Shown: piece after piece, positions 42,781 through 64,000 of the stretch
How positions within the stretch are numbered: position 1 is the first letter of the stretch
Layout: every line of letters begins with the position of its first letter
NCBI GenBank assembly: GCA_965278995.1
Contig: OZ257136.1
Location: forward strand, 2,874,497 to 2,938,496
Direction: 5' to 3'
Length of the DNA: 64,000 nt
DNA from: Gammaproteobacteria bacterium
GTDB lineage: Bacteria; Pseudomonadota; Gammaproteobacteria; Ga0077536
Made by a program: the position numbers and the translations under genes
The notes under the pieces: model-generated
Seen by the model: the letters and a program-made list of their open reading frames with translations, nothing else
What the model was told of the DNA's origin: nothing
The model's database searches: none

Positions 42781-44859
42781 TCAGGCCACCTGGCGCGTGC
42801 CGACATTGGCGCGTACGCCGTAGCCGCCGGTAACGGTTGCTGCGGCCATCTGTGGCAGCTCGGCGAGCGGGCGTGGGCGCCCGACGCCGTAGCCTTGTGC
42901 GAAATCGACGCCGACTTCGGCCAGACGACGGAGGATGGCGTCGTTTTCGACGAATTCTCCGATAGTCAGCATGCCCATGGCGTGACCGACCTCATTGATC
43001 GAGCGCACGATGGCCAGATCCATCGCGTCGTCCAACATATCGCGCACGAAAATGCCGTCGATCTTCAGGTAATCGACCGGCAGATTTTTCAGGTACGCGA
43101 AGGATGACAACCCGCTGCCAAAATCATCCAGTGCAAATCGACAACCGAGCGCTTTCAGCGCATGGATGAACACGGTTGCCCGCTCGAGATTGGCGATCGC
43201 GGCCGTTTCTGTCACTTCAAAACAGATTTTGGACGGCGGCACACCGGATTGCATGAACTGCTCGATGATGTAGTCGCGACTGTCGTCATCACACAAGGTC
43301 AAGGCAGAGAGATTGATGCAGCACATGTTGAGTTCAGCGAGGCTGGCGGGATGGCTGGCCAGCCACGCGAAAGCCGTTCGCATCACCCAGCGGTCGATCT
43401 GAGGTGAAAGATTGTAGCGTTCCGCCGCCGGCAGGAACGCACCCGGCGCAACAATACTGCCATCGGCTTCGCGCAGACGGATCAGGATTTCATAGTGAAC
43501 GCCATGCCCACCGCTGGCACCGGTGCTGACGATAGGCTGGGCATAGAGTTCGAATTCGTTCCGCTCCAGCGCCTGCGTGATGCGCGATACCCATTGCATC
43601 TCGCCGCGCCGGCGGGCGAGATCGGCGTCCCCTTCGTGATAACAATGGATGCGATTGCGACCGGCATCCTTGGCCGCGTAACAGGCCGCGTCGGCGCGCC
43701 GGAATACTTCGGAAATATCATTCACATCGGCGCCCACAGGAACGAGCCCGATGCTGATCCCGAGCTTGAAGGTTTTGTCTTCCCACGCGTAACGAAACTC
43801 GGCGACCCGCTGGCGAAGCCGTTCCATGACGACCTGCGCCTGCGGCATCGAACAGCGTTCCATGAGAATACCGAACTCGTCACCGCCCAGGCGCGCCAGG
43901 GTGTCGCTGCGCCGCAGCTGTGTTTCGATCAACCGCGCGAGCTGACGCAATAACTCATCGCCGGCAATGTGTCCGCAGGTGTCGTTGATGACTTTGAACT
44001 GATCGAGGTCGACATAGGCGAGCACATGCTCGGCGTCCATCGTAGAGCCAGTCGCCAGTACCTCGGCAACGCGCTGCTCGAAATCGCGACGGTTGAACAG
44101 GCCGGTCAGATGATCATGACGGGCCTGGTGTTCGAGCGCGGTTTCTGCCATTACCCTTTCGGTCACATCGACAATCAAGCCGTTGAAACGCAGCGTGCCG
44201 TCGCCAGCCTGCGGCTCGGGCGCCGAACGCCCGCTCAGCCATTTTTGATTGCCGGATTGTGTCGCGACTCGGAACTCATGCGACCATTCGCTACGCGTCG
44301 AAACAGCCATCGCAATACTGCGCTGCAGTTCAGGCAGGTCTTCCGGCACCACGTGTCCGAGCAGATATTCAAGACTGACATTGCCGTAATCCGGATCACC
44401 ATCGACCAGCGCCATGACGCCGCGACTGACGAACGTGAACCCCGCAGTGCCATCGGCTGCACTCTCGTACTGGAACACTGCGCCCGGAACGGCATCGGTT
44501 ATCGATTGCAGATTCGCTTCGCGCCCTCGCAGCGCCAACGTCGTACGCATATGACCGAGAAAATACCAGCTGACCAGTGCAATGGCGGACCAAGTCGCGA
44601 AAAGTCCGAGCAGGCCGGATGCCGAACCCGAACCAGCCGGTGCCAGGGCGACACCGAGTAGCGCGAGCGCACTGACCCCGGCGCCAACGCGCAGGATCAA
44701 TCTGCGGGAATCGGAGCGGGCAACCAGGCACAGTGGCACGAGGTATAGCGGTGCCAGCGCTGCCTCCTGGCCGGTGGCGAGCGCGAGCACGAACACCGCG
44801 GCGCCGGTGGCTGTGGCCCACCGCGCCTCACCAGATAGACCGGCCAGGATGGCCCGCAT
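42781..44859 (-). CDS. Membrane-anchored PAS-GGDEF-EAL cyclic-di-GMP signalling protein
   Basis: The GGDEF motif is RLGGDEFGILM. The EAL motifs are EVTETAAIAN and FALDDFGSGLSSFAYL. There are N-terminal transmembrane helices. Confidence 0.85.
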   Translation of the reverse strand: MRAILAGLSGEARWATATGAAVFVLALATGQEAALAPLYLVPLCLVARSDSRRLILRVGAGVSALALLGVALAPAGSGSASGLLGLFATWSAIALVSWYFLGHMRTTLALRGREANLQSITDAVPGAVFQYESAADGTAGFTFVSRGVMALVDGDPDYGNVSLEYLLGHVVPEDLPELQRSIAMAVSTRSEWSHEFRVATQSGNQKWLSGRSAPEPQAGDGTLRFNGLIVDVTERVMAETALEHQARHDHLTGLFNRRDFEQRVAEVLATGSTMDAEHVLAYVDLDQFKVINDTCGHIAGDELLRQLARLIETQLRRSDTLARLGGDEFGILMERCSMPQAQVVMERLRQRVAEFRYAWEDKTFKLGISIGLVPVGADVNDISEVFRRADAACYAAKDAGRNRIHCYHEGDADLARRRGEMQWVSRITQALERNEFELYAQPIVSTGASGGHGVHYEILIRLREADGSIVAPGAFLPAAERYNLSPQIDRWVMRTAFAWLASHPASLAELNMCCINLSALTLCDDDSRDYIIEQFMQSGVPPSKICFEVTETAAIANLERATVFIHALKALGCRFALDDFGSGLSSFAYLKNLPVDYLKIDGIFVRDMLDDAMDLAIVRSINEVGHAMGMLTIGEFVENDAILRRLAEVGVDFAQGYGVGRPRPLAELPQMAAATVTGGYGVRANVGTRQVA

Positions 44860-53026: not shown

Positions 53027-53821
53027 TCAACCGCACTGTCCGGCGCAGAATGTATCGAGTACCGGATCGGATTGCATGCGCATCACGGCCTGGGAATAGA
53101 TGGGTATGCCGAAACGATAGTGGCCCGCAGGCAGCCGATCAGGCAGTTCCGGTGCGCAGGCTGCACCGAAGGACGCGGCCGGTTTACCGACAGAAGCGAA
53201 AGTCGTGATGATGCGATTGACGAACGGCACCACGAGTTCGTAGCAGATACCGACATGAACCTTGATCAGATTGGCATCCTGTACCGATTGCTGAGAAGTC
53301 GGATCGGTCGCCGAACTGCGATACATGAGGTTGTCGTTGGGGATACGCGTGGTACCGGCGACAGTGACGCCGTGCTGTCCGAGAAAAGATTCCTCACGCG
53401 GGTTGATCAGCAGAATGCGTGCGTAGCCGTCGCTCAACATATCGCGGACGCGCTGCCGCGCGCATTTAACATCATCGAGATCCGGTTCGCCGTCGTGGCC
53501 GGTAATGTCGTCGAGGCTCGCAGGCCCGGTGCAGACTTCGCCGGCCATGGTGACGTAAGGCGTCGTATAGAGCGGCGCGAGCGAACGCGCAAACGCGAGC
53601 TCCATGGCCCACATGCGTGCATTGTTCAGTGCACCGGCGCGTGCAGTTTCGAATGCGGCGTAGTTCAGCGTCGTCTTCGCCTGGTAGATCAGCCCGAACT
53701 GAACCGCCCCAAGGATCAGCATCAACAGTACCGGCATGACGTAGATAAACTCGACCATCGCCTGCCCACCAGCATGACCCCGTGCCTGGGCGCCGCCCCG
53801 ATTGCGGGCAACGCTAGCCAT
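53027..53821 (-). CDS. TadE/TadG-like pilus assembly protein
   Basis: The N-terminus has AMVEFIYVMPVLLMLILGAVQFG (TadE-like domain). The true start may be internal. Confidence 0.55.
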   Translation of the reverse strand: MASVARNRGGAQARGHAGGQAMVEFIYVMPVLLMLILGAVQFGLIYQAKTTLNYAAFETARAGALNNARMWAMELAFARSLAPLYTTPYVTMAGEVCTGPASLDDITGHDGEPDLDDVKCARQRVRDMLSDGYARILLINPREESFLGQHGVTVAGTTRIPNDNLMYRSSATDPTSQQSVQDANLIKVHVGICYELVVPFVNRIITTFASVGKPAASFGAACAPELPDRLPAGHYRFGIPIYSQAVMRMQSDPVLDTFCAGQCG

Positions 53822-54431
53822 CTTCCGGGACTACCGCTGGCACAGCAGCCGGCGCGGATGCTTTGGGCACGGCGGGTACCGGCGCCACCGCAGGACCAGC
53901 GACCTGCCCTTTGCCATCGTCGTCGAGGATTTCCAGGATGGCGGCATAAGCATCCGCAGCTTGGCGACGCGTCGGATCGTCACCAGTCACGTGCACTTCC
54001 ATCTTGTGAAAGCTGTTCGCTGCCTGGCGCAATTGCACGATGCCCATGTTGAACCAGGCTTTCGCAAGCTCGGGTTCGCGCACCAGCGCTTCGCGGTAGG
54101 AAGCGACCGCGAGATCGGGACGGTCGGTACGCGCGTAGATATTACCGAGCTTGAACCAGTGATCGGCTTCCTGCGGGATCTCGCGGACCAGCGCGACATA
54201 ATGCGTTTCTGCCGCCGCCCAATCGCCCGCCGTATAGCTCTGCTGGGCGCGTTCGCGGATGACCTTGATATCGACTGCCGTGTCGTCCACCACGGGATCC
54301 GACGCGTTTCGCTGCGGCGCGTTCTGACAGGCGGCCAGCAGCAGCGTAAGTATGGCTGCGGCAACTCGCGCGCTTACGCTCTGCACCACGCGCCTGCGCT
54401 CGTCCGGGCCATGCAGATTCTCGCTGGCCAT
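53814..54431 (-). CDS. TPR-repeat lipoprotein (TadD-like)
   Basis: It has a lipobox LLLAACQ and TPR-like helices (WFKLGNIYARTDRPDLAVASYREAL). Confidence 0.5.
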   Translation of the reverse strand: MASENLHGPDERRRVVQSVSARVAAAILTLLLAACQNAPQRNASDPVVDDTAVDIKVIRERAQQSYTAGDWAAAETHYVALVREIPQEADHWFKLGNIYARTDRPDLAVASYREALVREPELAKAWFNMGIVQLRQAANSFHKMEVHVTGDDPTRRQAADAYAAILEILDDDGKGQVAGPAVAPVPAVPKASAPAAVPAVVPEDG

Positions 54432-54434
54432 ACT

Positions 54435-55322
54435 TCAGCTCTGGGCCAGGAACTTCATCACTATCGGGAACGCGAGCACGATGAAGGTGACAGGGAAAAT
54501 GAACAGGATGAGCGGGCCGACGAGCTTGATCGGCGCTTCCATGGCCAGTTTTTCGGCGCGCTGGAAACGTTCGTTGCGCCGCTGCTCGGCTTGAACGCGG
54601 AGCACGGTGGCTAGACTGGCGCCCATCTTTTCCGCCTGCACGACCGCGCTGACGAAGCTGGTGACTTCAGTGATATCGAGCCTGTCGGCCATGCGGCGCA
54701 ATGCGTCGGCGCGCGTCAGTCCAGAACGCAGGTCGCGCAGCACGATGGCGAATTCGTTCCGCAACGGTCCGGGCGGGGCCTTTTCCATCGACTGCGCCAG
54801 CGCACCCGACAGGTTGAGGCCCGCTTCGACGCACATCGTGATGAAATCAAGGTAGATAGGCATGCTGCGGATGACAGCAAGTTCGCGGCGTTTGCGCGTG
54901 TCCGCCAGCCATACGTTGGGAAACAGAAATCCGAGCAGCGGCGCAAGCAGGATGGCAAGCGGGAACGACTTGCCCATCACCATCAGACAGACCCAGATGA
55001 TCGGCGGCAAAATGAGCGCCATGAAGAATTGCAGCGCAACGAATTGTTCGGCGGTCAGCAGATAACTGACGCCGGTACGTTGCAGCCGCTTCTCGGTATG
55101 TTCCATGTAATCGTAGGGCAGGAACGGGCAGACGAAATTGGCGATGATGCGGATGAACGGCCAGATCAGTTTCAGCAGCGGCGGCAGCGGATCCATGTAG
55201 GACCGATCTTCCTCCTCGACCAGTGTATTGATCCACGACACCAGCAACCAGAAACAGACTGCCGACAGCGCCCACCCGCTGATACTGAGCCAGGGCAGGG
55301 TTCCATCGAGTGATTGATCCAT
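54435..55322 (-). CDS. tadC: Type II secretion system F-domain pilus platform protein (TadC-like)
   Basis: It has GspF-like helices and a position within the tad-like locus. Confidence 0.7.
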   Translation of the reverse strand: MDQSLDGTLPWLSISGWALSAVCFWLLVSWINTLVEEEDRSYMDPLPPLLKLIWPFIRIIANFVCPFLPYDYMEHTEKRLQRTGVSYLLTAEQFVALQFFMALILPPIIWVCLMVMGKSFPLAILLAPLLGFLFPNVWLADTRKRRELAVIRSMPIYLDFITMCVEAGLNLSGALAQSMEKAPPGPLRNEFAIVLRDLRSGLTRADALRRMADRLDITEVTSFVSAVVQAEKMGASLATVLRVQAEQRRNERFQRAEKLAMEAPIKLVGPLILFIFPVTFIVLAFPIVMKFLAQS

Positions 55323-55334
55323 CGTGAAGCCTGC

Positions 55335-56215
55335 TCAGACGTCAATCGAAGTGATTTTCGTGATCATCAGGTAGCCGAGTATTTCCATCACCACGATGAT
55401 GGACAGTACAGCCCAGCCGATACCCGTCGTCCACAGTTTGCTCATCGCTTCGGGTTCGAGGAAATTGAGCAGTACACCGAGCAGCACGGGCAACCCGGTC
55501 ATGACGATACCCTGCAGCTTGCCCTGCGCGGTTAAACTGCGGATCTTGCCTTCCATCGTCGACTTGCGACGCAATGTATCGGCCAGCGATTCGACCGTCT
55601 CGGCCAGGTTACCGCCGACTTCGCGGTTGATGCGGAGTGCTGTCGTCAGCATTCGGAAATCCTGCATCGGGATACGCTTTTCCATGTTCTTCAGCGAGAC
55701 ATCGAATTCGACGCCGAGGCGCTGTTCCTGAGTCAGGATCTCGAACTCCTGACTAATCGGCACCGGCTGCTCATTGACCAGATTGTCGAGCGCTATCGAC
55801 AGACTGGCGCCGGCCCTCAAGGCACCTGAGACCATCGCCAGCGCATCGGGTAACTGGGCTTCGATGCGGGCCAGCCGCTTGTTACGCATCGAGCGATAGA
55901 CATACGTTGGCAGCACCAGAATCAGCACGAACACAGCGAGCGTCGAGACCAGGTCGCCGAGCAGTATCCACACCAGCAGCGGAAGCACGCCGAGCGCAAT
56001 CAGGTTCATGCGGAACAAGCGGTTGGGATCGACGAACATGAACATGTCAGCCATGTTCGACGAGGCCGAAGCGGTGAAATCTTCGCGATACTTGACCATC
56101 TTGGACTGCGCTTTCACGCCGAGAATGATCCAGGCGGTGGTGGCGCACAGAAACATCGCGGCCAGCGCCGCGGGAAACGCGAACGTCGCGACCAGTCTGT
56201 AGAAACTCTCAGCCA

Positions 56216-56216
<1 letters not shown>
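55335..56216 (-). CDS. tadB: Type II secretion system F-domain pilus platform protein (TadB-like)
   Basis: It has a GspF-like domain and is coupled to the cpaF stop. Confidence 0.7.
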
Positions 56217-57961
<1,745 letters not shown>

Positions 57962-57973
57962 ACTGAATCCGCC

Positions 57974-59512
57974 TCAATCAAGCAACTTGAATGCATTACC
58001 GCGCATCGATTCGACGAATTCGCCGAGCTGCTTCTGCTCACGCTGGACGGCATCGACGTTCTCCTGATGTGCGGCGTCGTAGACCTGCGGCGTGACGAAT
58101 ATCACGAGATCGGTCTTGGAATCGCGAAACGCCCGCGACTTGAACAGGTGGCCGATGATCGGGATCGCGCTCAACCCTTTTAGTCCAGTCGTGTCGCGGC
58201 CGAGTTCGCGGTCGACCAGCCCCGACATGACCAATGTCTCGCCGGACTGGATCAGGATGTCGGCGTTCGTACGGCGGGTCAGGAAGCCAGGCGTATTGCC
58301 GACTGCGACGGACTGATCGACGGCGCTGATCTCGGTCTCGACCTTGGCCCGAATGTTGTCCTGCTTGTCGACCTCGGGCTTGATGTTGAGCAGGATACCG
58401 AACTGCTTGAACTCGATGGCAGCGCTGGTCGGCGTGACAATCTCGATCGGCACTTCGCCGCCGGCGAGGAAGCTCGCCTCACCGCCGCTCCGGGCGACCA
58501 GGCGCGGTTCGGCCAGGATCAGGGCATCGCCGGAACTGACCGCCAGATTGATCCGCGACGTGATTTCGGTGGCGATACCGAAATAGCCGAAGCTGGTGTC
58601 GGTTACTGCCGGATCGAGCACGGACAGCGAGTCCGGCGCATTGGCCCCGCCCAGCACGGTCACACCGTTGGTCCGCGAGCCACCGAAACCGGTTTCCGAT
58701 GACAGCGCCGCTGCCGGTCCGGCAAAACTGTTGCTCCAGTTGATGCCGAGATTGTCTGCCGCGCTTTTGTTGAATTCAGTGATCTTGATATGCATCAGGA
58801 CCATCTTGTCGTCGGGCAGATCGACGATGTCCTTACGGGTCAAATCCATCACTTCCTGATAGGCGCCCATGATCGTCGTGATGTTGTCGGCATAGGTGTT
58901 ATCGATAGTGCCAGTCAGCACGATACGGCTGCCGACAAGACGCACTTCAATGCCCTGGATATGCTGGACGAGCTGCTGGACCTCTGAAAGCTTCGTCGAC
59001 AATGACAGATCGAGAATTTCCGCATAGCCCGCTTTGACCTGCGCGACCAGCGCGCTGTAGCGTCCGTCGTACTGACCGGAAACGACTATCTTGTCACCGA
59101 CCACTGCGAGATCGATGCCGGGCACATGGCCAAGCAGTTTCTGCACCTGAGCGAATTTCTGCTGCAGTACCGCGCTGTTGACGGCCAGCGCATAGTCGGT
59201 CGGCTCGACGGTGAACTCGAGTTCACTCTCCTGACCGTTCTTCAACCATAGATGCAATTCGGTGACACCCGGTGCCTCGCCGAAAACCAGCAGCTGGCCG
59301 TTTTTCAGCAGCGATGTACTGATGACGGCGGCATTGCCGACAGCAACCCGATCGACATCGCCAGGTTGCAGGATGCGGATCTCGCCGACTTTCAAATTGG
59401 CCGCCAGGGCGTTCGCCCCGCACACCAGCAATATCGTTGCCCAGAGTATGGTCCGCAGCAGCGCGTTTCGCGTGCGATGACGCAAGTTCAGAGTATCCCT
59501 GGTGACCGCCAT
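57974..59512 (-). CDS. cpaC: Secretin (CpaC/RcpA family) with N-terminal BON-like repeats
   Basis: The secretin C-domain has AEPRLVARSGGEASFLAGGEVPI and GLSAIPIIGHLFKS. There is a signal peptide. Confidence 0.8.
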   Translation of the reverse strand: MAVTRDTLNLRHRTRNALLRTILWATILLVCGANALAANLKVGEIRILQPGDVDRVAVGNAAVISTSLLKNGQLLVFGEAPGVTELHLWLKNGQESELEFTVEPTDYALAVNSAVLQQKFAQVQKLLGHVPGIDLAVVGDKIVVSGQYDGRYSALVAQVKAGYAEILDLSLSTKLSEVQQLVQHIQGIEVRLVGSRIVLTGTIDNTYADNITTIMGAYQEVMDLTRKDIVDLPDDKMVLMHIKITEFNKSAADNLGINWSNSFAGPAAALSSETGFGGSRTNGVTVLGGANAPDSLSVLDPAVTDTSFGYFGIATEITSRINLAVSSGDALILAEPRLVARSGGEASFLAGGEVPIEIVTPTSAAIEFKQFGILLNIKPEVDKQDNIRAKVETEISAVDQSVAVGNTPGFLTRRTNADILIQSGETLVMSGLVDRELGRDTTGLKGLSAIPIIGHLFKSRAFRDSKTDLVIFVTPQVYDAAHQENVDAVQREQKQLGEFVESMRGNAFKLLD

Positions 59513-59547
59513 GTACTGATCCCCTCGCGTGCCGTGTTGTTTGTTGT

Positions 59548-59874
59548 TCATTGCAGTATCGGCAGACGGCCAACTTTGGCCGCACCATCCGCGCTGTTCC
59601 CGCCGGTAATCATCTCGATTGACGGTCCGGCCCGTACCCGCGGTGCCGGCGCAGTGCCGTCCGTCGGTGTGATGATGGCACCGCCGCTCGCAGACTCAGT
59701 GCCCGTGTCGGTGGCCGGCGACTGCGGCAGTTCCGCCGGGCTGGCCGCCGGTGCTTCATCGACTTTTCCGGCCGCCCCTGCGGACAACGCCATCGACCAG
59801 ACGCAGCCAAGCACAGCCCAGCGACACAGCGTCGATATCCGCCGCCGTGATCGATGAATTGCCATCGACTGCAT
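59548..59874 (-). CDS. Small secreted Pro/Ala-rich hypothetical protein between the cpaB-like and cpaC genes
   Basis: It is an ORF with a signal-peptide-like N-terminus; the call is weak. Confidence 0.3.
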   Translation of the reverse strand: MQSMAIHRSRRRISTLCRWAVLGCVWSMALSAGAAGKVDEAPAASPAELPQSPATDTGTESASGGAIITPTDGTAPAPRVRAGPSIEMITGGNSADGAAKVGRLPILQ

Positions 59875-59876
59875 CT

Positions 59877-61826
59877 TCAGTCGCTCGTCTTCAACGTCGT
59901 CGACTTGGCAACGCCATCGGTTGGCGAACCGCCGATGATGAGGTCAATCTTGCGCGCGCCGCCACCTATCGGCGTGCTAGCGGCGACGCTTGCAACCTGC
60001 GCTGCCGTCAGCGTGTGACCACTGCTGTCGACGACATTGCCGGCGGCATCGACTTTCAGTCCGGCCGAGGCGAGCTGTGCTTCACTCAGTACACCGTTCT
60101 TGGTCATGACCAGCGTTGCCGGGTTGACCACATTGCCGGCTTCGTCGACGACTTCACCATTGGCGTTCAAGGTCAAGCCCGCCGCCGCGAGCTGCTCCGC
60201 GTTGATCACTTTGCCGCTGGCATCGGTGACCAGAGTGGTGGGGTCGACGACCTTACCGCTGGCATCGACCAGTTCGCCTTTTTCGTTCATCGTCAGCCCG
60301 GCAGCCGCCAGCTGCGCGGGTGTCAGCAGTTCTCCGTTGGCAGTGACGACCAGCTTGTCGGGGTCGACGACATTGCCGGCTGCATCGACTATCTCGCCCT
60401 TGTCGTTGACGGTGAGGCCCGCTGCAGCGAGCTGTTCAGCCGTCAACAATCGGCCGTCGGCCGTCTTGATGAGCTTCGCCGTGTCGATGACCCTGCCGCT
60501 GGCATCGACGACTTCGCCGCGTTCGTTCACGCTCAATCCCGCCGCAGCCAGTTGCTGGCGAGTGACGATGTCGCCGTTTGCCGTCACGATGACATCTTCG
60601 GCCGAGACGATGTTGCCGTCCTTGTCGACGATTTGTCCGCTGGCATTGACGGTAAGGCCGGCTTTGGCCAGTTGTGCGCGATCGAGCACGCGACCATCGG
60701 CGGCGATGACGAGATTGGCCGGGTCGACAACCTTGCCATCCTTGTCGACAAGTTGCCCTTTGTCGTTGACCGTGAGGCCGGCTTTGGCCAGCTGCTCGCG
60801 GCTCATGATGCGATTGCCGTCGGCGTCGACGAGATTGCCGGCCTGGTCGACGCCGCTCGCAACGGCGACCCGGGTGCGGCGTTCGCCCTCGGCCTGGGCC
60901 ATGGTGAACGCATTACTGAAAAGATCCTGCGCAGACAGCGTCGAAAAGTCAGACAAGCCTTCGTCATTGCGATTGCGCAATAGTGCCAGCAAGTCGCCTT
61001 TGTCGAGTGCTGCGGTAACGAGTGCAGCCTCGCGCGGGCTGACGTCGAGTGTGATGGTGTTGTAGTTGCGTTCGGCACGCGGCTGCGGATAGTTCAGCGC
61101 ATCGAGTTCCTCGCGGTAAGGGTCACGCCCGGTGGCCAGCACACGCACACTCTGAAGCACCGGCAGAATGACATCCTTCGGCAGGGCATTCGCGACGAGC
61201 TGCTGGATCTCGGTATCGCCGGTATTGGCCCCGCGCGCCGCATCGAGCAGTGCACGTGGAATGGCATCACGTAGCTGGCTCGGGATCGCATCGACGAGAT
61301 CGGCGGTGATGAAGCCGGCCGAGAAGCCGGAGAAACCTGAGGGAATATTGACGAACAGATCGATGCGATTGCCGGGACGAATGAAGCCGGCGACGGAATT
61401 GATGTCATCGACCTGGACTGTCATCGCGCGTCGCCCGACCGGCACCGTATCGGAGAAATCGACCGGGAACCCGGTATCGAGATAGCTCTTCAGTATCGGT
61501 TTGCCCGCGCTGACATCAGCCTCGATGACCCGGCCGAGGTACTTTTCGAAATCGCCGGCAGGAACTGCATCGTTGGAGACGAATCCAGCCGGGATCTTGC
61601 GCTGAGACAGGACTTCGCGGCGCAACACGCTGCCTTTCGGGAGGTCGGTGCCGGCAACCAGTACGGTGACCTGCTTGCGGTCGGCACCGGCATATTTTTC
61701 GATCAACGCCGCTTTTTCGCTCTTCAAATAGACATACGAGAGCGCGGCCGCAACCAGCCCGAAAACGATAGCGCCAATCAGTAGCGGAATACCCAGTACG
61801 CTGCTGTTGTCTCGCGGCTCGGCCAT
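59877..61826 (-). CDS. cpaB: CpaB/RcpC-like pilus assembly protein (SAF domain) fused to about seven C-terminal ~40-aa tandem repeats
   Basis: The N-terminus has a transmembrane helix plus a CpaB-like region (RKQVTVLVAGTDLPKGSVL). The C-terminus has repeats of the form AEQLAAAGLTVNDKGEIVDAAGNVVDPDKLVVTANGELLT. Confidence 0.75.
   Translation of the reverse strand: MAEPRDNSSVLGIPLLIGAIVFGLVAAALSYVYLKSEKAALIEKYAGADRKQVTVLVAGTDLPKGSVLRREVLSQRKIPAGFVSNDAVPAGDFEKYLGRVIEADVSAGKPILKSYLDTGFPVDFSDTVPVGRRAMTVQVDDINSVAGFIRPGNRIDLFVNIPSGFSGFSAGFITADLVDAIPSQLRDAIPRALLDAARGANTGDTEIQQLVANALPKDVILPVLQSVRVLATGRDPYREELDALNYPQPRAERNYNTITLDVSPREAALVTAALDKGDLLALLRNRNDEGLSDFSTLSAQDLFSNAFTMAQAEGERRTRVAVASGVDQAGNLVDADGNRIMSREQLAKAGLTVNDKGQLVDKDGKVVDPANLVIAADGRVLDRAQLAKAGLTVNASGQIVDKDGNIVSAEDVIVTANGDIVTRQQLAAAGLSVNERGEVVDASGRVIDTAKLIKTADGRLLTAEQLAAAGLTVNDKGEIVDAAGNVVDPDKLVVTANGELLTPAQLAAAGLTMNEKGELVDASGKVVDPTTLVTDASGKVINAEQLAAAGLTLNANGEVVDEAGNVVNPATLVMTKNGVLSEAQLASAGLKVDAAGNVVDSSGHTLTAAQVASVAASTPIGGGARKIDLIIGGSPTDGVAKSTTLKTSD
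59990..60850. repeat. Imperfect 120-bp tandem repeat (about 7 units) inside the cpaB-like gene
   Basis: The motifs GGGTCGACGAC and GCCGCCAGCTG recur with a 120-bp period (e.g. 60121, 60241, 60361, 60481, 60601, 60721). Confidence 0.7.
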
Positions 61827-61914: not shown

Positions 61915-62313
61915 TCAGAATGGCGAGATTGCGTCCTGCGCCATCTGTGCGGCGATGTCCCCAAGATCTTCGAAACCGCCGAGCAATGAATCGATATCGC
62001 TGAATGCACTTTGCGCTGAAGTCAGCGGACTCAGCGCAGACGTCACCGCTTCCTGTACCGGGTCGACCGTCAGTCGCGCGAGAGTCTCCTCGTCGACTTC
62101 CGGATCGAGCGCGACATCGTTGATGTATTCGCGCAGTTCGGGCCCGGTATCGAAATCAGGCAGCGGCGACATCGAGAGCGAGTAGGAATAGCTGCGGTAA
62201 TTGTTCTTCAGGACGTCGGCCAGGGCCGCGATGACATCGCCACCCGGACCGAGCAGCGTCATCAGCCCGAAAGCGAGAATGACGGTGTACTCGACCATGG
62301 CCTGGCCGCGCAT
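61915..62313 (-). CDS. TadE-like/pilin-like protein
   Basis: The N-terminus AMVEYTVILAFGLMTLLG is TadE-like. Confidence 0.45.
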   Translation of the reverse strand: MRGQAMVEYTVILAFGLMTLLGPGGDVIAALADVLKNNYRSYSYSLSMSPLPDFDTGPELREYINDVALDPEVDEETLARLTVDPVQEAVTSALSPLTSAQSAFSDIDSLLGGFEDLGDIAAQMAQDAISPF

Positions 62314-62363
62314 GTTGCGCGCTCGATTGCTGTCAGCTGTAGCTCGTGTGGCCGTCACTTTGA

Positions 62364-63083
62364 TCACAGCAGGTCGTGTTCGATGGAGTTTACCACTATC
62401 TGCGAGCCACCACGATCCATCGATTGGATGGTGATGATGACCTGCTCGCGACCACGCGTAAAACTCAACGCGTGCAACTTCCCGTGGCCCATCGCCTGAT
62501 CGATATCTTTACGCCAGGCGGCATAGTGATTGCGATAGAACGTCACGTTGCTGTCGATCGAATTCGCATTGCTGAGCATCGCGGTGCTGGCCGACTTGCC
62601 CGGATCTTCACTCAGGACATTCGATTCGACAGTGGTATCACCCATCGATGGTGGTACCGGCGGTGTGGCCGGAGGCTCGCCCGGTTCAGGTAATCGGCCG
62701 AGCGCAAGATAACCGAAGCTGCCGCTACCTTTCGCAGGCTGCACCTGCACGGTCATCACGTAAGCGTCTTCGACACGCGTCAGCAGATGCCAGGGCGCAA
62801 TCGCGTCAGGTTCATAAGCGACACCGGGCGCACCGGGCACCGGCGGGTCTTTCCAGAGATCCTGATAGAACTGCACGACGTCATCGACGGAATCCTCGGT
62901 CACGAAACCGCGCACTGCCATCTGCCGGCCGAGGATGGTCATCGAATCGGAGATCTGACTCACAGTCGCGCCGTCCGGTGCCGGAAATTCAGGCGGACGT
63001 GCCTCGCTGCCGCCAGCAAAACAGCTTGCCAGCAGACTGAGAAACACGCCGGCGCGGCGACCACGTCGACGGCGTAACGGCAT
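62364..63083 (-). CDS. Hypothetical lipoprotein (lipobox LLASCFAG)
   Basis: It is an ORF with a signal peptide and a lipobox; the function is not assignable. Confidence 0.4.
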   Translation of the reverse strand: MPLRRRRGRRAGVFLSLLASCFAGGSEARPPEFPAPDGATVSQISDSMTILGRQMAVRGFVTEDSVDDVVQFYQDLWKDPPVPGAPGVAYEPDAIAPWHLLTRVEDAYVMTVQVQPAKGSGSFGYLALGRLPEPGEPPATPPVPPSMGDTTVESNVLSEDPGKSASTAMLSNANSIDSNVTFYRNHYAAWRKDIDQAMGHGKLHALSFTRGREQVIITIQSMDRGGSQIVVNSIEHDLL

Positions 63084-63088
63084 TGCGG

Positions 63089-64000
63089 TCACAGCGTACA
63101 CGGCGAATGCGACATCGGCGGGTCGAGTTCCTGCACGGCTTCTTCCCACACGCAGCGTCCGCTGTCATCGCAGACATGGTTGCCGAGGCGCGCTTCGGGA
63201 TCTTCGCCTTCGACCGAGAGCCGGTCGGGATGCACGACGTCGCCGTCGACATATCCCAGCCACAGATGACCTTCCGGTGCCGCCAGCGGCGATTTGACCA
63301 GCGGATCGGGTGGACCAGGCGGATCGCAGCGCGAAAGTTCCGGCGCGATGAAGCTGATCAGATCCCAGATCTCGCTCAAACCCGGCAGATTGAGCAGTTC
63401 GTTGACCAGGGTCGACGGCGTCGTGCCACCGACCTGCAAATAGGTATGCGCGGTGCCGCCAGCGTTCCAGCCGTCGGCGACGACGCCGGCCTTGGCGCCG
63501 AAAGCGAGCAGACTCTCGGTGGTATCGGGGCGCGTTGCCAGTGCATCGCGCAGCACCACGCCACCTTTGTAGACCGTTGCCATGGCGTCGAAATCGACGT
63601 GACTGTAGCCGTCGGTGTTCATCGCGCTGAACCCGGCACTGCCGGCGAACGGGTCGCCCGCGCCAGGCAGCGTCGAGCCGTCTGACTGGTTATTGCGCGA
63701 GAACGAATCGAGCAGATTGATGATGGCGCCGACTGCGTCGAAACCGATCTGCACGATATCGACAATCGTATTCAACCACGACCCGACATCGACGCCGAAA
63801 ATGGTGATGGTCGGCGTGTCGTCGTCGGTTTCGACGACCGTCATATCGAGCGAACCATCGAAAAACGGCAGACCACGATGATCGACCCAGCTTGCCCGCG
63901 GAACGTAAGGCGTGCCGGCATCCGTGGCCAGCAACACCGGGATCGCCGACGGCGAGCCGCTGCCGTCGTCGACTTCATTGCCGACATCGGACATCAAACG
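63089..64000 (-). CDS. Hypothetical protein, partial (it continues beyond the window end)
   Basis: The ORF runs off the window; it is Gly/Asp-rich with no recognised domain. Confidence 0.35.
   Translation of the reverse strand, partial: RLMSDVGNEVDDGSGSPSAIPVLLATDAGTPYVPRASWVDHRGLPFFDGSLDMTVVETDDDTPTITIFGVDVGSWLNTIVDIVQIGFDAVGAIINLLDSFSRNNQSDGSTLPGAGDPFAGSAGFSAMNTDGYSHVDFDAMATVYKGGVVLRDALATRPDTTESLLAFGAKAGVVADGWNAGGTAHTYLQVGGTTPSTLVNELLNLPGLSEIWDLISFIAPELSRCDPPGPPDPLVKSPLAAPEGHLWLGYVDGDVVHPDRLSVEGEDPEARLGNHVCDDSGRCVWEEAVQELDPPMSHSPCTL

Follow-up and report, generated by a model that had tools for sequence, protein, structure and literature searches.

Why would the protein that links the inner membrane to the secretin in a Tad pilus machine carry a tandem-repeat array of about 300 residues? 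The question is raised by a gene for a long CpaB/RcpC protein, the alignment-complex protein of Tad pili, at 59877..61826 (− strand) of a 64,000-nucleotide stretch of a gammaproteobacterial genome (contig OZ257136.1), which we will call the window. The open reading frame (ORF) begins with ATG and encodes 649 amino acids (aa). An earlier note on this DNA gave 270-300 aa as the usual length of CpaB, and this agrees with what we found (282, 281, and 305 aa for three plasmid-borne CpaBs and 303 aa for RcpC; PMC12307814). The additional residues form an array of 40-residue repeats that is followed by a conserved, predicted beta-hairpin. We lean towards the view that the array crosses the periplasm as a structured connector or cage, that its length is defined, and that it takes the place of a floppy tether.

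A genuine CpaB/RcpC protein with a repeat array

The product of the window gene is a genuine member of the CpaB/RcpC family, with the standard membrane anchor, the D1 and D2 domains, and a predicted terminal beta-hairpin. The TIGR03177 model (pilus_cpaB) matches aa 15-326 with 125.1 bits (cutoff 71) and is covered from position 3 to 257 of 262. The Pfam family RcpC (PF16976) matches from aa 124 (70.8 bits, threshold 28.8) and the Pfam family SAF matches aa 54-116 (29 bits, threshold 21). The inner-membrane anchor is an N-terminal transmembrane helix at aa 12-46 (61689..61793, −), as indicated by a hydrophobic stretch of 24 residues (aa 12-35, LGIPLLIGAIVFGLVAAALSYVYL), and by a helix at aa 12-46 in our AlphaFold2 (AF2) model; it is the single transmembrane segment, with the remainder of the protein on the periplasmic side. 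The same N-terminal membrane anchor is present in RcpC (PMC12307814). The RcpC core, D1 (SAF) plus D2, extends over aa 50-298 (60933..61679, −), according to the Pfam matches to SAF and RcpC and to a Foldseek comparison with PDB entry 9gzr, the structure of RcpC from Pseudomonas aeruginosa (Evans et al. 2025, PMC12307814). The gene for RcpC also lies beside the gene for the Tad secretin, and its fold, as seen by electron cryo-microscopy (cryo-EM; 9gzr_B), matches the AF2 model with E = 7.6e-12 and a template modelling score of 0.51, normalised by target length. The two proteins can also be matched by sequence (phmmer, 9gzr_A, E = 5.5e-5).

The AF2 model of the full-length protein, a monomer with 115 homologues in the input, has a mean predicted local distance difference test score (pLDDT) of 78.8 and a predicted template modelling score (pTM) of 0.44. 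In it, the transmembrane helix (12-46) and the D1/D2 core are followed by another helix (299-317), by the repeats (pLDDT of 84-89), and by a terminal hairpin (626-631 and 641-646).

The array itself occupies aa 326-621 (59964..60851, −) and consists of a half-unit, six 40-aa units, and one degenerate unit, as seen with Tandem Repeats Finder, in the alignment of the units, in the Pfam matches to DUF3659, and in the AF2 models. The six units start at aa 343, 383, 423, 463, 503, and 543 (the unit at 543 has 39 aa), the half-unit in front of them is aa 326-342, and the degenerate seventh unit is aa 582-621. Tandem Repeats Finder reported a 120-bp period at 60108-60434 (69% matches) and at 60613-60841 (75% matches). 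At a lag of 40 residues, the self-identity is 0.465, whereas 2000 shuffles gave no value above 0.189 at any lag. The roughly seven 40-residue repeats with a 120-bp period that the earlier note described are therefore far above chance (six clean and one degenerate), and our consensus, REQLAAAGLTVNxKGExVDAxGNVVDPAxLVxTANGxLLT, is essentially equal to the one given there.

Two details of that description need to be revised. The units were said to be 70-75% identical in DNA, and this holds relative to the consensus from Tandem Repeats Finder only: in pairwise comparisons the units are 53-72% identical in DNA (40-69% in protein). Also, each repeat was thought to have two half-units of about 20 aa, but there is no 20-residue half-period in the array, as the identity at lag 20 (0.087) does not rise above background. 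The true sub-period is 7 residues (lag-7 identity of 0.208, versus a background of 0.091 ± 0.016). Each unit is made up of a 12-residue helix segment (xEQLAAAGLxVN) and then four 7-residue hairpin-turn motifs ([DN]xxG).

AF2 predicts a confident fold for the array, with a short helix and hairpin turns in each unit. When the array was modelled alone, the pLDDT was 85.4 and the pTM was 0.60, and over both models the pLDDT of the array was 84-91. Foldseek did not identify a solved structural relative of the array (the best match had E = 0.026 and a probability of 0.08). A weak phmmer match of the repeats to PDB entry 9lx4 chain A (‘ZZ4’, E = 6e-4) has a low-complexity-like alignment and was not used. 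That match covers aa 390-507 (about 60306..60659 of the window), and the molecule, whose entry carries no description, may be a designed or repeat protein.

The array lies in the place of the tether

In the three canonical CpaBs (281-305 aa), the core is followed by about 40 Pro/Ala-rich residues and then by a short terminal strand-turn-strand segment. In the window protein, the TIGR03177 match continues to aa 326, the array extends from 326 to 621, and the predicted hairpin is at 626-646. Between D2 and the array lie a helix (299-317 in the AF2 model) and a linker, which together (aa 299-325; 60852..60932, −) are the positional equivalent of linker L3 of RcpC and end where the TIGR03177 match stops. 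As the array lies between the core and the conserved hairpin, where canonical CpaBs have a tether of about 40 residues, it has either been inserted into the tether or replaced it. The idea in the earlier note that the repeats are an extension on the protein that couples the inner membrane to the secretin is thus borne out in outline, with the array exactly between the RcpC core and the terminal hairpin.

The C-terminal tail (aa 622-649; 59880..59963, −; KIDLIIGGSPTDGVAKSTTLK) is a putative secretin-docking element, given the conservation of its motif and its predicted beta-hairpin. AF2 places the strands at 626-631 and 641-646 in the full-length model; when the array was modelled alone, they were at 625-634 and 638-647. 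Essentially every full-length homologue, down to 33% identity, has the tail motif hxhIIGGxSxDGVAK, and the members at 33-40% identity keep it even though their repeats have drifted to other unit types. Of the conserved elements of the family, the tail is the most diagnostic. In RcpC, the hairpin completes a beta-sheet of the N-domain of the secretin RcpA, and deleting the hairpin abolishes Tad function (PMC12307814). In Caulobacter, the hairpin of CpaB packs on CpaI, which donates strands to the secretin (PMC13170226). The tail peptide has no match among PDB chains, and the hairpins of the three canonical CpaBs are unrelated to it in sequence. We therefore propose to equate the tail of the window protein with the hairpin of RcpC by its position, its predicted structure, and its conservation, and not by sequence homology.

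The array is ancient and under selection

To describe the family, we rely on a homologue search over 5.8 billion proteins, in which 8000 candidates were scored and 120 clusters were listed. At least 328 homologous clusters are among the 8000 candidates scored. All of the matches listed combine RcpC with PF12396 and are 499-814 aa long, and where a cluster has a database name at all, it is just ‘Flp pilus assembly protein CpaB’. The number of units in the homologues is 6-11. Relatives were found in 122 GTDB species (one genome per species was scanned); nearly all of them are metagenome-assembled genomes (MAGs) of uncultured Gammaproteobacteria, including Thiotrichaceae, Oceanospirillales, Nitrincola, and Thiohalobacter, and they are mostly from marine or sediment samples. 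The closest relative with DNA in the GTDB scan is 71% identical in protein, so that synonymous sites are saturated.

The earlier note viewed the array as ancient and selected, and not as the result of recent slippage, and two observations support this. First, each unit of the window protein is most similar to the unit at the same position of its orthologues (identity of 0.62-0.75, versus 0.47-0.50 to other units, for orthologues that are 62-82% identical overall). This implies that the array predates these lineages and has not been homogenised. In many independent assemblies there are also orthologues with seven units and a length of exactly 649 aa. Second, a comparison of 29 orthologues gives an identity of 66% for the array, versus 74% in the D1-D2 core and 70% in the tail, which indicates that the sequence of the array is under purifying selection. 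In contrast to the core and the tail, which are constant in length, the array varies: across 67 loci it is 172-512 aa long, with a median of 304. Together with the range of 6-11 units, this comparison across relatives, which the earlier note had suggested, shows that array length is an evolving variable, and it would change by gain and loss of units.

Relationship of the repeat to DUF3659

Pfam DUF3659 (PF12396) matches the window protein in five stretches, with 90.1 bits (gathering threshold 24.8), and all 120 listed homologues have a precomputed match to PF12396. Nevertheless, no stretch of the window protein is a full-length match to the 61-position DUF3659 unit: the best one covers profile positions 5-59 but corresponds to about 1.6 of the 40-aa units. 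Four fungal-type DUF3659 proteins (P0128, P0144, P0138, and P0134) contain 5-11 full matches, from position 1 to 61, with 315-726 bits, and our profile of the 40-aa unit matches them at positions 8-26 only. DUF3659 is archetypally fungal, and the literature that we found on it is limited to one paper, on a fungal lipid-droplet protein. What the window protein shares with the fungal archetypes (e.g., LdrD of Aspergillus oryzae) is the short hairpin motif GxxVDxxGxVV. The fungal proteins have full 61-position matches of 300-700 bits, whereas the window protein has a 40-aa period, an added EQLAAAGL helix, and partial matches. The common hairpin motif xDxxGxV also accounts for two other candidates, which we rejected: FlgE/F/G D1 (PF22692; 38.9 bits), in which no single stretch was significant, and GmtX (36.8 bits), which was under its own cutoff of 40.

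The earlier note had considered that the repeats might be a common annotated domain. They do score above the threshold for DUF3659, but 40-aa units of this kind are rare: out of 1.84 billion representatives, our profile of the window protein's unit matched 210 at E ≤ 1e-3, and full-length matches were nearly confined to proteins with the CpaB N-domain or fragments of them. Other proteins matched the profile only by the half-motif GLxVNxxGxIVDxxGxVV. Furthermore, DUF3659 is a Pfam family without known function in any organism.

The repeat type may not be limited to CpaB. A protein of 654 aa (P0163) has a DUF937 domain, DUF3659-like repeats, and then an OmpA peptidoglycan-binding domain, and from its domain order the repeats seem to serve as a spacer in this unrelated periplasmic protein. 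By analogy with P0163, and with a protein of a metagenomic relative that we describe below (P0127 of locus L082), the repeat module would be portable as a periplasmic connector.

A small secreted protein next to CpaB

Between cpaB and the secretin gene is an ORF of 108 aa (59548..59874, −), without a Pfam or NCBIfam match, that encodes a Sec signal peptide, a disordered region rich in Pro, Ala, and Thr, and a C-terminal copy of the hairpin motif. This copy (IEMITGGNSADGAAKVGRLPIL) resembles the CpaB tail. An ORF with the same position and layout is present in 43-47 of the related loci (a few of these ORFs also carry DUF3659-like half-units), and a Sec-type signal peptide was found in all 43 orthologues. 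A hidden Markov model (HMM) built from CpaB tails alone finds 47 such ORFs among the 3111 ORFs of these loci, 29 of them at E < 1e-3; its other matches are the CpaBs themselves and one noise match. In a more divergent subfamily, the small ORF is missing and cpaB directly abuts the secretin gene. We also considered an LPV motif after the hairpin as a marker of the loci with the small ORF (33/13 versus 7/14), but the association, while suggestive, is confounded by phylogeny, and we did not use it.

The obvious comparison is to CpaI of Caulobacter crescentus. CpaI has a secretin-N-like beta-sandwich that accepts the hairpin of CpaB, and it contributes strands from its own C terminus to the secretin (PMC13170226). 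In one metagenomic relative of the window, a protein of 520 aa that is encoded between the long cpaB and the secretin gene (P0127 of L082, 8001-9563, +) follows the same logic, with a pil_N domain (PF13629, 59 bits), an array, and a hairpin-like tail; by analogy, it is a CpaI-like bridge with an array of its own. This CpaI-like layout is seen only in some relatives. The 108-aa protein of the window comprises just the signal peptide, a disordered stretch, and the donor hairpin: Pfam and NCBIfam show no CpaI-type beta-sandwich acceptor domain, and the signal peptide and the hairpin are separated by about 50 low-complexity residues. Its role may be that of a CpaI-like partner reduced to a minimum, or it may compete for the docking sites on the secretin.

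A proposed role for the array

By analogy to RcpC and to Caulobacter CpaB, about 12 copies of CpaB would form a ring above the inner membrane, as RcpC does, and their hairpins would dock on the N-domains of the secretin by strand complementation. The secretin of this operon (525 aa; 57974..59551, −; Pfam Secretin, 121 bits; syntenic in 72 of 79 loci) has an N-terminal T2SS-T3SS_pil_N domain (PF13629, 51.7 bits, aa 52-108), and by the same analogy it is the probable receptor for the hairpin or hairpins. Each array would then reach from the D2 ring as far as the docking hairpin and connect the two membrane halves of the machine at a defined length. The small secreted protein would probably occupy or regulate the same docking sites, as a minimal counterpart of Caulobacter CpaI. 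For example, as RcpC and RcpA have a symmetry mismatch of 12:13-14 (PMC12307814), it could fill the sites that are left over, or it could be a regulator. That the array is folded and selected is suggested by its pLDDT of 84-91, its pTM of 0.60, its identity of 66% versus 74% for the core, and the positional orthology of its units.

Several observations weigh against a connector of defined length. The modelled complex of RcpA and RcpC already spans 21 nm of the 24-nm periplasm without any array (PMC12307814), and the secretin here is not shortened, so that there is nothing obvious for the array to compensate. The array may therefore do more than bridge a distance. A pTM of 0.60 hints at a fixed geometry between units but is not proof of it. 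The predicted hairpin has a pLDDT of only about 60-70 in the monomer. The 108-aa ORF of the window is only weakly matched by the HMM of CpaB tails (E = 0.064). Finally, the members of the family are all uncultured or unstudied.

A more specific version of the connector is a molecular ruler. Twelve rod-like arrays would form a rigid cage whose height is set by the number of units (from 3 to more than 11) and which fixes the distance between the Tad platform and the secretin, while the hairpin-only protein fills or regulates the sites left over by the 12:13-14 mismatch. We regard the ruler as possible rather than probable. If it is true, then the number of units would track the width of the periplasm or the thickness of the sacculus across lineages, and the family would be a natural and titratable model in which to study how machines that span the envelope gauge the periplasm.

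Alternatively, the array might be a flexible tether, with loosely coupled mini-domains that let the hairpin search a large volume and so catch a distant secretin or tolerate a variable width of the periplasm. Such mobility would fit with the hairpin and linker L3 of RcpC, which are mobile and were not resolved by cryo-EM (PMC12307814), with the pTM of only 0.44 for the full-length model, and with the free variation in repeat number among lineages. However, loose coupling is not what the array-only model suggests, with its pTM of 0.60 and a uniformly high pLDDT across the junctions between units. Also, conservation of 66% and positional orthology are more than an entropic linker would need, and canonical CpaBs use low-complexity Pro/Ala linkers, so we consider the tether unlikely. 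We would give even less weight to a role in anchoring, in which the hairpin repeats, like choline- and glucan-binding solenoids, attach to peptidoglycan or to a glycan of the periplasm or capsule and fix the complex to the sacculus. The earlier note raised the binding of cell wall or polysaccharide, but we found no match in sequence or fold to hairpin repeats that bind cell wall, choline, or glucan (CW_binding_1 type). The top Foldseek matches do include the CROPs of TcdB, the glucan-binding repeats of dextransucrase, and C-LytA, none of which is significant; the density attributed to CpaI in Caulobacter is associated with peptidoglycan (PMC13170226); and Evans et al. speculate that RcpC might recruit enzymes that act on peptidoglycan (PMC12307814).

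The turns of each unit contain about five acidic or amide residues that are conserved, and most of the sources are marine or sediment MAGs, which raises the idea that the Asp/Asn-rich turns (NxxGE, DxxGN, DPxD) bind Ca2+ or Mg2+ and that the array folds or stiffens only in a marine periplasm. In another form of this idea, the twelve arrays and their hairpins form a lid that gates the passage of the pilus, and Evans et al. do suggest that the channel of RcpC may be closed by a lid made of the hairpin region (PMC12307814). This seems very unlikely to us: it is purely speculative, the Pfam scan gave no match to EF-hand, RTX, dockerin, or other calcium-binding families, and on inspection the spacing of the acidic residues appears unlike that of an EF-hand or a DxDxDG pattern. 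Least of all do we expect the array to be a mis-assembled or recently slipped repeat, or a functionless expansion. Apart from the generic risk that repeats pose in assemblies, nothing points that way, and units that are 53-72% identical in DNA are too diverged to collapse or expand. The 649-aa orthologues from independent assemblies, the positional orthology, the intact reading frame, and the conservation of the array refute it as well, which excludes the artefact that the earlier note had allowed for.

A distinct Tad operon

The order of the operon is orf302, orf261, a 150-aa pilin-like gene, the long cpaB, the 108-aa ORF, the secretin gene, tadA with an FHA domain, tadB, tadC, a gene for a TPR protein, and a tadE-like gene, and this order is syntenic in nearly all of 78 related loci. 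There is no gene for TadZ/CpaE in any of these 78 loci, nor between the secretin and tadA genes in the window. This syntenic order without TadZ/CpaE implies that the long CpaB marks a distinct Tad subtype.

Downstream of the secretin gene is the gene for a TadA/CpaF-type ATPase with an N-terminal FHA domain (56216..57961, −; Pfam T2SSE, 216 bits; FHA, 29.8 bits); the FHA part is kept in 64 loci. It is followed by the genes for TadB, TadC, the TPR protein (TadD-like), and a TadE-like pseudopilin (53027..56216, −), as identified by Pfam (T2SSF twice, TPR, and TadE), which are syntenic in 52-56 loci. The upstream members of the operon are ORFs at 61915..63997 (−) that are syntenic in 69-74 of 79 loci. 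The 150-aa pilin-like protein (61915..62367, −) has a Flp-like class III signal motif, G/QAMVEY (RGQAMVEYTVILAF), and its gene is kept upstream of cpaB in 71 loci. It is far larger than a typical Flp pilin. Beyond it are the genes for the proteins of 261 aa (62364..63149, −) and 302 aa (63089..63997, −). None of the three proteins has a Pfam match, and the latter two also lack an NCBIfam match; these two are likely to be parts of this Tad subtype that have yet to be characterised.

We did not see a gene for a prepilin peptidase from about 50 to 64 kb of the window. The Tad operon ends about 8 kb away from a gene for a PAS-GGDEF-EAL protein (42781..44859, −), which would be involved in cyclic-di-GMP turnover and might be a regulator of adhesion.

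Comparison with other Tad systems

The connection between the inner and outer membranes in Tad machines was resolved only recently, with the structure of RcpC in 2025 (PMC12307814) and the in situ maps from Caulobacter in 2025-26 (PMC13170226), and according to both papers the connectors differ between lineages. The window protein presumably shares with RcpC a periplasmic alignment ring that is coupled to the N-domain of the secretin via a hairpin. But RcpC, with its 303 aa, has a short and partly disordered L3 in front of the hairpin, where the window protein has about 300 folded repeat residues. The operons also differ, as the window operon has no TadZ, has an FHA-TadA, and has a second, small hairpin-bearing protein next door.

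The Caulobacter system, as seen in situ by electron cryo-tomography (PMC13170226), joins the two membrane halves by donation of beta-strands and has an extra small periplasmic component in the locus. From genes and models, the window system would resemble it in both respects; however, Caulobacter CpaB does not have a repeat array. The Tad-like Kil system of Myxococcus xanthus (PMC8460266) is similar in that its hexameric ATPase has an N-terminal FHA domain and in that some canonical Tad accessories are lacking. In contrast to the contiguous operon of the window, whose secretin keeps its pil_N domain, the kil genes are in two clusters, the secretin KilC does not have an N0 domain, and no CpaB with repeats has been reported there. 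Indeed, no repeat-bearing CpaB is described in the literature that we searched. What is new here is the architecture of the connector between the membranes; CpaB/RcpC is itself a known protein family, and we infer the mechanism.

Implications

The system is a distinct gammaproteobacterial Tad (type IVc) pilus machine. Its CpaB family adds a third solution for the connector, namely a long folded array within CpaB together with a hairpin-only partner protein, and should be of interest to specialists in Tad and type IV pili because the connector has just been structurally defined and varies by lineage. This connector has been kept across more than 100 species, mostly uncultured marine or sediment Gammaproteobacteria, with a natural range of lengths from 172 to 512 aa. 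DUF3659, an orphan family, gains its first bacterial context in structure and function, as a periplasmic connector that also occurs before an OmpA domain and behind a secretin-type N-domain. And if the array is rigid, then these species would provide a natural series of rulers for testing how envelope-spanning machines handle periplasmic distance.

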